DNA from: a virus
Lineage: Duplodnaviria; Heunggongvirae; Uroviricota; Caudoviricetes
IMG/VR virus record: IMGVR_UViG_2734482593_000003
Strand: one strand, 5' to 3'
DNA: 5,833 bases
Below the pieces are notes generated by a model, which saw nothing but the letters and a program-made list of their open reading frames with translations, was not told the origin of the DNA and made no database searches. Positions 1 to 5,230 of this stretch are shown piece after piece. The stretch's first letter is position 1. Each line of letters starts with the position of its first letter. The position numbers and the translations under genes are program-made.

Positions 1-17
1 GCCTGTCCAATGTGCAT

Positions 18-50
18 AAAAAAATCCGGAAACAAGTGAGCGTTTCCGGA
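18..50 (-). terminator. Rho-independent terminator immediately downstream of the portal gene
   Basis: Perfect 9-bp inverted repeat TCCGGAAAC (25-33) / GTTTCCGGA (42-50) with an 8-nt loop. On the minus-strand RNA the hairpin is followed by seven U (plus-strand A run 18-24). The plus-strand flank after the hairpin is only TTCTT, so it is mainly a minus-strand terminator. Confidence 0.6.
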
Positions 51-84
51 TTCTTACACAGCCACTGGATCGGTCAACTGATCC

Positions 85-1241
85 TTAACTGATCGGCATT
101 ACACCACCGGGACGCGGATTCATATCTTCCAGGTCGCGGCAGTCATTGGAAGAGTAAATTCCCCAGTTGATCCCGGTGGCGTAGGCTTCAAAACGGGACT
201 TCATATCCCCGCGCAGTAACGCCCCGGCGTTAAATTTGGCGTAATAAACGCCCTGCTTACTTTTTCGTACCAGTCCGGTGTTGATCCGCTGTTCGATGCG
301 GGTCAGATACGGCACCAGTGAATAGTTGATAAATCCCAGCCCCAGCTCTTCGATATTGTTGAAGGTGGCGCGATCGGTGTTCTGCACCATGTGCAACGGC
401 ACCCGGAACAGACGACAGATTTCTTCCAGCTGAAACTTGCGGGTTTCCAGGAACTGACTGTCCTCGGCGTTCAGCGCCATCGACTTCCAGTCCAGCCCCA
501 TTTCCAGAATCATCGGGCGGTGAGCATTGCCAAGCCCCGTGTGACACTCCTCAAAATCTTTCTTCAGACGCTCGTAAGCATCCGGCGTGAGCTTTTGTTC
601 CGTACGCAACACACCGGATGTCACCGCACCATTACTAAACAACCTGGCACCGTGCTCCTCGGTTGCCGCTGCCAGTGAAATGGCCTCACGCGCATACGCA
701 ATGGGATTCAGCCCGACAAGTCCATCCAGCGTCAGGGTGCGCACATGCCAGATTTCATTCTGGGTCAACACATCCACGGAACCATCCGGAAACGTCACCT
801 GATAAACCGGCTGCCACTGGCTGTTCAGCTTCGGTTCCACACAGCCCGGATCTATCGGAAGAAGCTCCACCACTTCTCCCAGTGCCTTTACCTTGTAGGC
901 GTAAAAATTCCCCCGTAGACACAGGCAGACAATAACCAGCTCCCAGAATTCCTGCGGTGTCATGTAGCCATTAGGTTTTGCCGAAACCAACTTATGCAGT
1001 CGTTCATCCACCGCCCGTGTTTTCAGGGTACCGCTGATTTTGTAGAGACTGCAGGGCAGCATACCAACAGACTCTGCCAGCACCCTGACGCAAGAATAGA
1101 CCGCCGTCAGGCGCATGGCCCGCTGGCTACTGATCCGCTTTCCGGTATAGGTGTCGTATGACAGCCCGATAGCATCAGCAGTTCTGCTGGCGTGGTCACC
1201 GGCACATCGCTTTTTCGTTGAAATAATCCCGAAAAGAACAC
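85..1241 (-). CDS. Phage portal protein (HK97 family); reading frame apparently interrupted by a 1-nt frameshift near 1164-1168 (possible pseudogene or sequencing error)
   Basis: The 85..1332 ORF contains the portal motif (AMRLTAVYSCVRVLAESVGMLPCSLYK) and ends at TAA 87..85. That frame has no ATG/GTG/TTG between the upstream small ORF stop (1241) and Met73 (ATG 1116..1114); its only upstream start is TTG 1332, with no SD, inside the small ORF. A different frame has GTG 1241..1239 with GGAGG 6 nt upstream, encoding MFFSGLFQRKSDVPVTTPAELLMLSG... with good codon usage, and stops at TGA 1109..1107. Codon quality switches between the two frames around the GGG run (plus-strand CCC 1165-1167). Confidence 0.8.
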
Positions 1242-1423
1242 TATTTACCTCCGCCGACAGACTGCCGTGTACGGTCGAGATATCGCGCCACCAGCCACGA
1301 CCAGAACAGGCACAGCGCCCCGGCAACAACAAAACCCGCCGGGGGATAAATCAGCCAGGCACCATACGCCAGCAAAAGCGCACCCAGCACGCCCACCAGA
1401 GGCGCGAGAATCAGCATGATCAT
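1241..1423 (-). CDS. Small hydrophobic membrane protein (60 aa, two predicted TM helices), function unknown
   Basis: ATG 1423..1421 lies 5 nt after GAGGT and directly after the terL stop (TAA 1437..1435). Codons are E. coli-typical (CTG/GCG/GGT rich). Sequence [60 protein letters not shown] has two hydrophobic segments and a basic C-terminus. Its TAG stop overlaps the portal GTG (TAGTG). Confidence 0.6.
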
Positions 1424-1434
1424 AATTACCTCAG

Positions 1435-3168
1435 TTAAAGCGAGCGGATCCCGTAGGACTCAATGTGGTCAGACAGCGTGTCTTCTTTCTCGTACAGCAT
1501 GGCTCTGCCAACCGCCATAATCAGCGCAACTGCACCATCGATTTTGTTTTCCGCCTGCTCTTTGACGGGTTTCACCACATCATCGTTACCCGGCATGTTT
1601 TTGCCGACCACGTTGCCGATACACCAGGTCATGATGGGATTGCCGTCATGATGAAAACGTCCCGATTCAATCGCTGCTTCCAGCTCTTTCATCGGATCGG
1701 ACATATTGGTGAAGTTCTGGACGATAGTGACGGGATTCAGGTCTTCATCAGCAAGGTCATGTGACAACCCGGTCGCCCCGAAGGGGTCGATGGGTGACTC
1801 ACTGACCGGGCTGATTTTGTTCGCCGCTTTGGCCTCCTCGAGGATGTAGCGATAATCCACCTCCGCACCATCGGTAACGGTCAGAACGCCCATTTCCACC
1901 CATTTCTGAAAGCGTTCGGCTGTCCGTCGATCTTCATTTTTCTCGACGCTGTACACCGTGTCATACGGTACCCAGAAACGCGGGGCCACACTGTAGTAAT
2001 GCGTTTTACCGTCAATCTCGCGGGTATAAAGTCGCGCCATGCTGTTCATATCCAGCTTACGCGCCAGGTCAAAGGCCAGAATGCACGGCTGCCCCTCGAA
2101 CTGCTCAAGGGTCAGTGATTTATCCTCGCAGCTCTGCCAGCTCACCAAGTTGAAATACGCCGAACGCGCCGACACCCAGATATTGAGGTGTTTTGTTTTA
2201 AAGACGTTTGCCAGACGGGCGTTATTTTTCGCACGCTGCTGCTGACTTAACAAAAATTCGCGATAAACCGACACGCCAATATTTGGATTGGCTTTTTCCA
2301 GCACCTGCGGGCCGGTCCAGTCGTCACCTTCATCAACGGTATAGATGATCCCGAACAGTTCATCGTTAGGCACCGAGCCGTTGAGCATCTCGATGACTTC
2401 CCGCCGCTTGTCGTAGCACGGCCCCTCAATGTTGTACCCGGCGGTGGTGATGGCCCACATCAGTGGCTGACGTCGCGCCCCCATCCCGGTAAGCATTGTG
2501 GTATAAAGCGCATCGGTGGCATGCTCGTGATATTCATCAACCACGGCACAGTGGGGTGATGAACCATCACCTGGGTTGCCGATCAGCGGTTCAAACCGCG
2601 CGCCATCCTCCGGACGGTTCATGTTTGAGGCGTTAACCTCAATCCCGAACGCTTCCGTCAGCATGGGTGTGCGTTTACACATCAGTCGCGCCGGGCGAAA
2701 GACTTCCCACGCCTGTTTCTCTGTCGTGGCACCGGAATACACTTCCGCGCCAAACTCGTTATCACAGGCAAAACAATACAGGGCAACACCGGCAGAGATT
2801 GCTGATTTGCCGTTCTTACGGGGGATTTCGGTGTACACCTCCCGGAAGCGGCGCAACCGGGTGCCTTTATTGACCCAGCCAAACGCACAGCAGATCACAA
2901 ATAGCTGCCACGGCTCCAGCGTGATGGGCATCCGTTTGAATGCCCACTCCCCCTTGGTGTGCGGCAACAGCTGAATAAATTTCGCGGCCCGTTCAGCCAG
3001 GTCCTTGTCGAAGCGGTAACGAAACGACTTACTTTTTTCCGCCATCAGGTCATCAAGATGGCGCTGGCAGGCCTGAATCACAAACTGGCAGGCAACAATC
3101 TTTCCGCGCACGACATCCCGGGCATACTGATTTGCAGCATTTACGTTGGGGTAAGATTTCCGGCTCAT
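1435..3168 (-). CDS. terL: Phage terminase large subunit (577 aa)
   Basis: Long ORF with ATG start 3168..3166 in an ATGA overlap with the upstream terS stop. Walker A-like PRKNGKS near the N-terminus, acidic motifs (VVDEYHE) and a C-terminal nuclease-like region. Sits between terS and portal as in HK97-like head modules. Assigned from recalled family features. Confidence 0.95.
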
Positions 3169-3659
3169 GATTCGATAATTTTCAGAAACGGGTTAGTGGC
3201 TTTCTTCTGCCCCGCCAGGCCAATCAGACGCTGGCGGCTGCTGGGGTCGAGTCCGAGCATTGCCCCCGTGCTGCTCATCTCGGACTCCTGTTCTTTTTTG
3301 GCGGTCAGCTCCGGATTTTTGACCCTGCCGCCCATTGCACCGGTGATGGTGTTGCCCTGTATGGCAATATTTTTCACGGCACGTCGCCAGAACTCATAGG
3401 CCACGCACCACCGCTCAAGTACCGCCAGGTCAGTCACGCACAGCAGGCCCTGACCGCAGAGTTCTTTGGTTGTCAGTTGCCACATGATCGTGGCGAGAGG
3501 GAGATCTTCTTCAGCGAACCACTCTGGTGGCTCAACACCTTTGATGGGCGTAAAAACAGGTTCATCTTTGTTCAGGGCTCGCTTGCCGGGGTTTCCGGCC
3601 AGCGCCTTGCGCGCCGTTGGCTTGGGGCGACGCCCGGAACGCCCCGCCGTTCCAGCCAT
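3165..3659 (-). CDS. terS: Phage terminase small subunit, P27 family (164 aa)
   Basis: N-terminus [27 protein letters not shown] is characteristic of P27-family small terminase subunits. I chose ATG 3659..3657, which has AGGAG 8 nt upstream, over the GTG at 3668 used by the ORF track. Stop TGA 3167..3165 overlaps the terL ATG. Confidence 0.85.
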
Positions 3660-3780
3660 ATGCGGCACTCCTGGTTAAATTTCATTTTTCGCGGGTATAA
3701 AAAAACGATGGGGCGGGCAGTCCGGAAGACGTCAGGTCACAGGGATTTGCCCCGCCCCTCCCTACAAGTGAGAATAATTA
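3660..3780. other. Putative cos / packaging-recognition region between the HNH and terS genes
   Basis: 121-bp intergenic region in the position where HK97-like phages carry cos (HNH gene - cos - terS). Contains a perfect 8-bp GC inverted repeat GGGGCGGG (3710-3717) / CCCGCCCC (3751-3758) separated by 33 bp, flanked by A/T-rich tracts. Assignment is by position and composition only. Confidence 0.4.
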
Positions 3781-4131
3781 TCACCGGATTCGTTCGCGCG
3801 CTGTTTTCGCTTTATGGCAGGGCCAGCACAGACTCTGCAGGTTGCTGTCTGCGTCTGTTCCGCCATGCGCTTTCGGGATGATGTGGTCGACGGTTTTCGC
3901 CTCGCTCACCACACCGACACGCAGACACAACTGACACAGACCTTTATCGCGCTTCAGAATACGGGCACGAATCACCGTCCATTTTGAGCCATAGCCACGC
4001 TGGTGGCGGCTCAGTCCGCGCTGGTGCTGCACCCAGCCTTCACCGCGATGTTTATCGCAGTAACCCGAACTGTCTGTGGTTGTACCTGCACATCCACGCT
4101 TACGGCAGGCACGTGGGATTAGTGATGGCAT
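3781..4131 (-). CDS. HNH endonuclease, phage packaging-associated (116 aa)
   Basis: ATG 4131..4129 with GAGGT 7 nt upstream. Cys-rich zinc-finger-like N-terminus (CRKRGCAG...C) and HNH motif DHIIPKAHGGTDADSNLQSLCWPCH. Located directly upstream of terS, as HK97 gp74. Confidence 0.9.
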   Translation of the reverse strand: MPSLIPRACRKRGCAGTTTDSSGYCDKHRGEGWVQHQRGLSRHQRGYGSKWTVIRARILKRDKGLCQLCLRVGVVSEAKTVDHIIPKAHGGTDADSNLQSLCWPCHKAKTARERIR

Positions 4132-4173
4132 AAATACCTCATACCCTGCGAAATGTTTACCACGATAAAAAGG

Positions 4174-4521
4174 CTACTTAATGCACTGAGTGCGGATATA
4201 CTCCTGTGCCCCTTCCAGTTGCATCTGCATCGTCATCAGCCGCTCTCTGAGGGTGAAATAATCCCGTTCAGCGGTGTCTGCCAGTCGGGGGCTGGTTGCA
4301 TTATCCACGCCGGAGGCGGTGGTGGCTTCACGCACTGACTGACAGACTGCTTTGATGTGCAACCGACGACGACCAGCGGCAACATCAGCGCGCAGAGTTT
4401 CATTTTCAGCTTTCGCAACTTTGTAGGTAATGGCGTTATCACGGTAATGATTAACAGCCCATGACAGGCAGACGATGATGCAGATAACCAGAGCGGAGAT
4501 AATCGCGGTGACTCTGCTCAT
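4174..4521 (-). CDS. Rz: Rz i-spanin (inner-membrane spanin subunit), shortened variant (115 aa)
   Basis: From ATG 4521..4519, which overlaps the R stop as ATGA, the product [34 protein letters not shown]... matches lambda Rz as I recall it through residue 34, then resumes at AKAEN...[25 protein letters not shown]. About 39 residues of the periplasmic coiled coil are absent relative to the 153-aa lambda Rz. The ORF track starts 4 codons earlier at GTG 4533. Confidence 0.85.
4236..4403 (-). CDS. Rz1: Rz1 o-spanin (outer-membrane lipoprotein subunit), embedded in the +1 frame of Rz
   Basis: Near-identical to lambda Rz1 as recalled: lipobox LVVVGC followed by [43 protein letters not shown] 4403..4401 is taken as the start; alternative starts are TTG 4418 (the position aligning to lambda Met1) or GTG 4442 (ORF track). 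Confidence 0.8.
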
Positions 4522-5015
4522 TGCTGCCCCCACAAACAGACTTCACGCTCAATCTCACGACGGGTCATCAGCCCTTTCCATTGCTTACCGCCAGCATATG
4601 TCCAGCGACGTAGCTGGTCACATGCGCCTTTGATATCGCCCTGGTTTATTTTGCGAAGAAGCGTCGATGTTCTGAAATTGCCAGCGCCCACGTTGTAAAC
4701 GAACGAGTAAAGAGCGCCGCGCGTTGTTTCCGGTATATCGACTTTGATGTACGGGTTAATTTGTCTGGCGACAGTGGCAAGGTCTTTATTCAGGAGGGCT
4801 TTGCATTCTGCTTCGGTATACGTTTTACCGAGCATGATGTCTTTTCCGGTGTGTCCGTGACATACAGTCCATACACCAATGATATCTTTGTATGGTATGT
4901 AGCTGACACCTTCCAGACCATCGTTACCACCTGGGCCAGTGATTAACACAGATGCTATAGCAACAGCCCCACCACCAATAGCAGCTGCAACAGCCTTGCG
5001 TAATGATGGCGACAT
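4518..5015 (-). CDS. R: SAR endolysin (phage 21 R-type lysozyme, 165 aa)
   Basis: Near-identical to the phage 21 endolysin as recalled. Gly/Ala-rich N-terminal signal-arrest-release segment ([24 protein letters not shown]), followed by catalytic Glu/Asp/Thr spacing (GLEGVSY...[12 protein letters not shown]). ATG 5015..5013 overlaps the S stop as TAATG. Confidence 0.95.
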
Positions 5016-5230
5016 TATTCACCTCTCGCAGCCTTACGCTTGTCTTCTCTTATTTTGAAATACAGATTTGTCAGATAAGTCAGAAGCCCCAGAAGCAGAC
5101 TTCCCAGCACACCAATCGCAGCCCACTGTGATGGACTGACCTGATCCAACCACTGCAAAAACCAGTAGCCGGCACTGCCGGCGGAGGTGCCGTAGGCAAT
5201 GCCTGTTGATATTTTTTCCATCTGATACAT
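5015..5230 (-). CDS. S: Pinholin, phage 21 S-type (S21/EssD family), dual-start (71 and 68 aa forms)
   Basis: [71 protein letters not shown]: two TM helices and a basic C-terminus, matching S21/EssD as recalled. Two in-frame ATGs at 5230 and 5221 (Met1 and Met4) give the dual-start motif. G-rich SD-like sequence lies upstream. Confidence 0.95.

Follow-up and report, generated by a model that had tools for sequence, protein, structure and literature searches.

The open reading frame (ORF) at positions 1241..1423 of a 5,833-nucleotide stretch of Caudoviricetes DNA (IMG/VR record IMGVR_UViG_2734482593_000003) was identified with near certainty, on the basis of sequence comparison, as ymfR, a member of PHROG 502 encoding a small two-helix inner-membrane protein. 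The whole stretch is referred to as the window, all coordinates are window positions, and all genes of the window lie on the minus strand. Comparative analyses indicate that ymfR is a genuine protein-coding gene under purifying selection in its own frame, that its translational coupling to the portal gene is a real ancestral feature, and that the gene follows the portal rather than terL where modules have been shuffled. The most likely function, which is put forward tentatively, would be that of a late inner-membrane partner of the portal. In the window itself ymfR is a surviving remnant beside a dead portal gene.

Identity, coding status and predicted architecture

The deduced product of 60 residues, encoded by a coding sequence starting with ATG and ending with TAG, was 100% identical to the RefSeq proteins recorded as 'protein YmfR [Shigella sonnei]' and 'MULTISPECIES: protein YmfR [Shigella]', and 58 of the 60 residues (97% identity) were the same in YmfR of the e14 prophage of E. 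coli K-12 MG1655 (UniProt YMFR_ECOLI). Residues 1-55 matched the profile of PHROG 502 ('membrane protein') with E=2.8e-28, a family that PHROGs places in the category 'moron, auxiliary metabolic gene and host takeover'. Megablast against phage records showed the region to be 93-95% identical in SfII, SfIV, SfI, 118970_sal3 and vB_EcoM-720R4 and ~83% identical in ST64B and phiP27; the near-identity of ymfR among SfII, ST64B and phiP27 is due to a recent common ancestor or to mosaicism. The same ORF is recorded as 'putative integral membrane protein' in SfII (SfII_03) and phiP27 (L37), its counterpart in ST64B is Sb3, and the PGAP label in complete E. coli genomes is 'ymfR: protein YmfR'. Of 5,426 complete E. 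coli genomes, 1,600 contained a match to a 701-bp probe across the gene, and in 1,162 the match covered 80% or more of the probe. The e14 gene of K-12 MG1655 has the same length, the same terL-portal position and the same stop/start overlap as the gene in the window. The flanks differ in that the window portal is frameshifted and truncated by an insertion sequence (IS), whereas in e14 both terL and the portal gene are deletion remnants. The gene is therefore one already known and annotated and not a new insertion, contrary to the sequence-only reading, which had described it as of an unannotated type and as a membrane protein gene not known from HK97-type head modules. The fallback offered in that reading, an uncharacterised conserved small protein, was correct.

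Sequence searches with YmfR gave no meaningful match in Pfam, NCBIfam, PADLOC or the PDB. A profile search of the PDB gave no match at E<=1, and Foldseek against the PDB returned generic helical hairpins only (E>3). The label DUF2244, given by NCBI to one distant member, was rejected since the protein scored 11.1 bits against PF10003 versus a cutoff of 27 and the domain was unmatched among 65 members. In the papers that mention ymfR, it appeared only in lists of genes or as a site for strain engineering, with its function unassigned, and a literature search for small transmembrane (TM) genes adjoining portals yielded nothing relevant.

Since 69 ORFs of at least 30 residues occur in the window, length by itself is no proof of the ymfR ORF. 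Coding status was evaluated by comparing 19 unique DNA sequences from Escherichia/Shigella, Salmonella, Klebsiella, Yersinia, Mangrovibacter, Scandinavium, Citrobacter and Serratia loci. The ymfR frame was open over 59-65 codons in these homologous sequences, with synonymous sites saturated (proportion of synonymous differences, pS, 0.6-0.7) and a ratio of nonsynonymous to synonymous substitution rates (dN/dS) of ~0.2-0.3. Variability at codon positions 1, 2 and 3 was 0.25, 0.13 and 0.46 in the TM core and 0.49, 0.52 and 0.59 in the C-terminal tail, while the ratio of nonsynonymous to synonymous differences (pN/pS) was 0.72 for the tail versus 0.36 for the core. The saturated synonymous sites combined with the codon-position pattern indicate selection for the peptide, specifically its membrane hairpin, rather than for an RNA element. 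As judged from these values, conservation is concentrated in the glycine-rich membrane core of the protein, and the cytoplasmic tail is close to neutral in its evolution. The sequence-only reading had made the gene depend on conservation of the ORF in related phages; both the ORF and its frame were conserved, and variation followed the ymfR frame and not that of the portal. Furthermore, a profile search of 1.84 billion representative proteins returned 382 clusters at E<=1e-3, nearly all of 45-80 residues, with the common motif G..G..(S/A)YGAW(L)(I/V)Y.PAG(F/Y)I..G.

An RNA or terminator element inside ymfR was rejected, based on a consensus scan that found none, a fold no different from that of shuffled sequences (z=0.15) and synonymous sites that were saturated among distant members. 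The SfII record contains a 'putative rho-independent terminator' at 2766-2815, corresponding to ~1366-1415 on the minus strand of the window, that was unsupported by the same scan and fold. The probability that the frame is open by chance, or that it is traversed by a portal reading frame initiated at TTG 1332, is negligible. The frame of the portal body is open back to TTG 1332 in the window, but this openness is a by-product of a 1-nt deletion in the portal gene described below; in the relatives the ORF starting with this TTG is a dead end of 41 residues and the portal begins at the overlapping GTG or ATG. The dead-end ORF and the deletion refute a portal start at TTG 1332 with read-through of ymfR, and the coding signature tracks the ymfR frame.

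Kyte-Doolittle hydropathy revealed two hydrophobic helices, in agreement with an AlphaFold2 model built from a 65-sequence alignment that contained a helix at residues 2-25, a turn at 26-28 (YPP) and a helix at 29-56 with a mean predicted local distance difference test score (pLDDT) of 70. TM helix 1 (residues 2-25; 1349..1420) contains the conserved residues G11, G14, G21 and W23. It is followed by the turn Y-P-P-A-G (residues 26-30; 1334..1348), the family signature, predicted to be periplasmic, in which P28 and A29 are nearly invariant among the 65 sequences. TM helix 2 (residues 31-46; 1286..1333), delimited like helix 1 from hydropathy and the model, contains the conserved residues G35, C38, W41 and S42 and leads to a basic, fast-evolving tail (residues 47-60; 1244..1285) that is predicted to be cytoplasmic and ends in GGGK. 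The two membrane helices proposed from the sequence were borne out by both predictions, and the tail is basic as proposed. Alignments, hydropathy and the model together assign to the window protein the form that defines the family, a two-TM hairpin of 55-65 residues with a G..G..YGAW..PAG..G core. The positive-inside rule would place both termini in the cytoplasm and the YPPAG turn in the periplasm, and the conserved glycine, tryptophan, cysteine and serine residues suggest helix-helix packing or oligomerisation in the membrane. The terminal GGGK is encoded by the Shine-Dalgarno sequence of the portal gene, and the family-wide C-terminal GG[E/D/K] corresponds to GGAGG or GGGGG upstream of the portal start. 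Since these codons are kept across the family because they encode the portal Shine-Dalgarno sequence, the sole conserved feature of the tail is a constraint at the level of nucleotides and not of protein.

Coupling to the portal gene and distribution among phages

The ATG of ymfR (1423-1421) lies 11 nt downstream of the terL stop codon TAA (1437-1435) and is preceded at a distance of 4 nt by the Shine-Dalgarno sequence GAGGT (1428..1432), which is unchanged in the aligned sequences of SfII, 720R4, ST64B and phiP27. A further in-frame ATG, codon 3, is 10 nt from the same Shine-Dalgarno sequence. At the other end, the portal Shine-Dalgarno sequence GGAGGT (1247..1252) lies inside ymfR codons 57-59 and is kept in all close relatives, with equivalents at distant loci. 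The stop codon TAG (1243-1241) shares its G with the ancestral portal start GTG (1241-1239) in the sequence TAGTG (1239..1243). The gene is thus flanked by terL and a PF04860 portal, and its stop codon shares a base with the start of the latter. All features from which the ORF was originally described, namely the GAGGT, the ATG following the terL stop, the hydrophobic helices, the basic tail and the TAGTG, were present on the minus strand.

The arrangement was conserved among relatives. The gene was found between terL and the portal gene in 20 of 20 enterobacterial loci, each with a one-base stop/start overlap (TAGTG, TAATG or TGATG), and at these loci the portal Shine-Dalgarno sequence (GGAGG or GGGGG) was within the last codons of ymfR. 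Overlap or near-abutment with the portal start extended to 25 of 27 diverse loci carrying the gene, and the conservation of this overlap identifies the coupling as ancestral. Distant members were examined at loci of Marinobacter, Salinicola, Pseudaeromonas, Nitrobacter, Mesorhizobium and Undibacterium, in a second E. coli type (57 residues, on a prophage contig) and on metagenomic contigs. In 10 of 10 such look-ups the order was TerL (PF03354/PF20441), small gene, Phage_portal (PF04860), protease and capsid, the protease being of the S78, S49 or ClpP type, so that the arrangement spans phages of alpha-, beta- and gammaproteobacteria. In Undibacterium an additional gene was located between terL and the ymfR homologue, with the overlap with the portal start still present.

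The coupling claimed in the sequence-only reading thus stood as a conserved overlap with an internal portal Shine-Dalgarno sequence, but in the window the downstream portal gene is a pseudogene. Compared with SfII, 720R4, ST64B and phiP27, a 1-nt deletion was located between 1180 and 1179, 62 nt into the portal gene. The frame starting at GTG (1107..1241) encodes 44 residues, of which 21 codons are authentic portal sequence before the frame is lost and terminates at 1107. The body of the pseudogene continues in the shifted frame (85..1179), and from ~101 downwards an IS4-family element has taken the place of the 3' end, with the junction at ~85-101; similarity to SfII-type portals ends at 102. 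Four chromosomes were 100% identical to window positions 1-4417 and contained an IS4-family transposase immediately beyond the portal break. Since the deletion is identical in the four chromosomes, it is a genuine mutation rather than an error of sequencing. The locus is that of a decayed Shigella prophage in which the portal is dead and ymfR, terL, terS, the HNH endonuclease gene and the lysis genes are intact. As a result, the coupling in the window is ancestral only and serves no working portal.

Loci in which modules have been exchanged provide evidence that ymfR is co-inherited with the portal gene. Serratia prophages were 35% identical to the window in terL, 72% in the portal and 52-66% in YmfR. 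SfV was 98% identical in terL and 28% identical in the portal, with an unannotated ORF for a 53-residue hairpin at the same place. Among 24 loci the identity of the YmfR core correlated more strongly with that of the portal (Spearman 0.51, partial 0.47) than with that of terL (0.27, partial 0.15), values that are rough since the pairs are non-independent. A distinctive N-terminal motif in the portals linked to ymfR was rejected, the hydrophobic N-terminus (MFFPGMF and similar) also being found in portals without the gene.

A portal profile was used to retrieve 80 IMG/VR loci, in which the distribution of the gene was surveyed. Every portal at least 80% identical was accompanied by ymfR. Among ~42 non-redundant portals at 36-62% identity, ~11-13 had a small two-TM ORF abutting the portal gene, and in ~31 terL directly abutted the portal gene as in HK97. 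Since ~70% of the distant portals and HK97 are without it, ymfR appears from these comparisons to be an accessory gene that is dispensable for the PF04860 portal family. The gene nevertheless did not conform to a classic moron, a moron-like addition having been suggested from the sequence. A scan for sigma-70-like promoters over ~500 nt upstream and for terminators on the minus strand was negative, the G+C content at third codon positions (GC3) was 0.67 versus 0.65 for both terL and the portal gene, the gene is spaced by 11 nt from terL and by a 1-nt overlap with the portal gene, and it is inherited with the portal across Proteobacteria. A published study describes how a compound that triggers the SOS response induced K-12 ymfR along with other e14 genes (PMC10012262). 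In SfII/ST64B/phiP27/e14-type phages, ymfR belongs to the late operon for packaging and head genes.

Neighbouring genes, related proteins and the annotation record

The upstream neighbour of ymfR is an intact terL (1435..3168) encoding 577 residues with 98-99% identity to the terL products of SfII and SfV. Further upstream are terS (3165-3668), the HNH endonuclease gene (3781-4131), Rz with an embedded Rz1 (4174-4533), the endolysin gene (4518-5015) and an S21-like holin gene (5015-5230). The lysis genes at 4518-5230 resemble those for a phage-21-type pinholin and a signal-anchor-release endolysin, as judged by their translations only. Class II holins and pinholins such as S21 share with YmfR a length of ~60-70 residues, two TM segments, a predicted N-in/C-in topology, richness in glycine and a basic C-terminal tail. 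A holin or pinholin identity is not supported, since no holin family of Pfam or PHROGs matched and ymfR is located in the head module, the lysis genes being separate at 4174-5230; the phages that encode YmfR carry complete separate lysis cassettes.

The lambda protein gpW (68 residues), encoded between A (terL) and B (portal), resembles ymfR in position, size and the 3' overlap with the portal start. It differs in that gpW is soluble whereas YmfR is a predicted TM hairpin. Alignment with hhalign against lambda W gave a probability of 2.7%, and no gpW match in Pfam was obtained at E<=10 for YmfR or across the 65 members, results that eliminate this identity. Homologues of ymfR are labelled 'head-tail joining protein W' in vB_EcoM-720R4 (2641-2817), 689R6, 606R7 and Salmonella phage As1. 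The sequence comparisons indicate that these labels are positional mis-annotations.

Two further small genes occupy the same place as ymfR. The SfV ORF (PHROG 7105) and orf3 of Pseudomonas phage D3 (PHROG 4810) encode two-TM hairpins of 53-54 residues with a basic C-terminus, lie between terL and the portal gene and overlap both. The SfV ORF (U82619.2, 2289-2450, 53 residues) is a distant homologue of YmfR, with an hhalign probability of 90% and a match to phrog_502 at E=5.7e-6. The annotated portal start of SfV (2392) lies inside this ORF, and GTG 2440 is the more likely start. D3 orf3 (2107-2271, 54 residues) had no detectable homology to YmfR (probability 2%) and may be an independent analogue or have diverged beyond recognition. 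No family of PADLOC-DB matched YmfR, the SfV ORF or D3 orf3 at E<=1.

Several records contain the gene without annotation or in an unexpected context. Yersinia phage PY54 (AJ564013) encodes an unannotated YmfR homologue of 65 residues at 2295-2492 that overlaps the terL stop and the portal ATG. The homologue in SfIV is present and unannotated in KC814930 and NC_022749, and ymfR is likewise not annotated in the SfIV paper. In the chromosome of Shigella flexneri SFBU0723 the ymfR of a second prophage (locus ~4001-4179) looks frameshifted, with residues 27-60 alone aligning and the locus 1 nt shorter. The record 'Enterococcus phage Efm 3-10' (OR844959.1, 1764 bp) consists of terL-ymfR-portal DNA of enterobacterial type with ~85% identity, and a contig recorded as 'MAG: Bacillota bacterium' contains near-identical enterobacterial DNA of the same region; both are probably the result of contamination or misbinning. 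The analysis therefore flags the 'W' labels, the ORFs missing from the SfV, SfIV and PY54 records and the likely wrong portal start of SfV.

Candidate functions of YmfR

A role for YmfR as a late inner-membrane partner of the portal is preferred, at a level of confidence that is no better than tentative, because the protein would be made late, in portal-like amounts and from a coupled cistron. The gene is translated from its own Shine-Dalgarno sequence right after terL, with its stop overlapping the portal start, and the helical hairpin would insert in the inner membrane with both termini in the cytoplasm. There YmfR may tether or nucleate the portal, the prohead or the packaging complex. Because many related portals are without it, YmfR would improve assembly rather than enable it. 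A precedent is gp40 of T4, a membrane protein described in PMC9958956 as helping the T4 portal assemble on the membrane; like the proposed YmfR it is a phage product that associates with the membrane and has a functional link to the portal. Assembly of the T4 portal on the membrane is experimentally established, whereas in the YmfR phages it is a proposal. Gene 40 is not known to adjoin gene 20 in T4.

Several observations weigh against a portal partner. The small gene is dispensed with by HK97 and by ~31 of the ~42 related PF04860 portals, and the N-termini of portals are alike with and without ymfR. The tail, which is the sole cytoplasmic part of YmfR, is short and poorly conserved, properties unexpected for a portal-binding surface, and the confidence of the AlphaFold2 model (pLDDT 70) is moderate only. 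The linkage between ymfR and the portal gene could also be purely historical, the overlap leaving no room for recombination between them. Assembly on membranes is not known for HK97-like proheads.

The main alternative, possible though somewhat unlikely, is that YmfR is an autonomous late membrane effector acting independently of the portal, with its position marking an old insertion site. Such an effector could possibly keep out the DNA of superinfecting phage late in infection, modulate holin timing or the proton-motive force, or inhibit a host membrane protein. Conservation concentrated in the Gly/Trp-rich TM core and not in the tail, as is typical of small proteins acting in the bilayer, is consistent with this explanation, as are the PHROGs category and the patchy distribution, the gene being missing in HK97 and at ~70% of the distant portal loci. 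The gene is also intact where the portal is dead, in e14 and in the window, but chance alone would be expected to spare a 183-nt gene in a decayed prophage. Moreover, the lack of a detected promoter or terminator and the native composition argue against expression in the lysogen of the kind known for exclusion morons, PADLOC and holin profiles gave no match, and the distant look-ups never placed the gene in a lysis cassette, although such cassettes were located just upstream. An effector acting alone would not be expected to stay so strictly coupled to the portal, in position and in translation, across Proteobacteria. Overall, the non-conserved tail and the patchy distribution favour an autonomous effector, and the strict coupling and the absence from lysis and early regions favour a portal partner.

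Two other roles were weighed in light of the same coupling. It is improbable that YmfR is a virion-borne ejection helper, a hairpin packaged with or near the portal that inserts in the inner membrane of the recipient during DNA ejection. Expression coupled to that of the portal and roughly stoichiometric with it would suit such a role, and predicted TM segments are compatible with virion proteins, the tape-measure protein of SPP1 having four (PMC6316719). Yet no virion proteomics or structure reports YmfR, the gene is absent in many related phages, and a protein of 60 residues with a start-proximal TM helix should insert co-translationally in the membrane of the producer. It is more improbable still that the gene is merely a translational-coupling leader, in which the passage of ribosomes sets a low rate of portal initiation and the peptide is functionless. 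The conserved stop/start overlap with its internal portal Shine-Dalgarno sequence would be expected of a leader, and phages without the gene couple the portal directly to terL. A mere leader would not, however, keep a two-TM hairpin with amino acids conserved from alpha- to gammaproteobacteria (YGAW..PAG..G) despite saturated synonymous sites, nor would it have codon position 2 as the most conserved and a dN/dS of 0.2-0.3.

The proposal of a portal partner can be extended to a class, although in this wider form it is on balance doubtful. YmfR/PHROG 502 and analogues such as D3 orf3 may represent an overlooked and widespread class of proteins that anchor the portal vertex, and with it prohead assembly or DNA packaging, to the inner membrane in many HK97-fold phages of proteobacteria. 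If so, the class would extend membrane assembly of the T4 type (gp40/gp20) to temperate phages. If YmfR acts with the portal, a membrane-linked step of head assembly or packaging would exist outside T4; if it acts alone, roughly one E. coli genome in four would encode a late membrane effector. The main value of the results is the correction of the record, and the remaining interest lies in a widespread, portal-linked membrane hairpin of K-12 that is without a published function.

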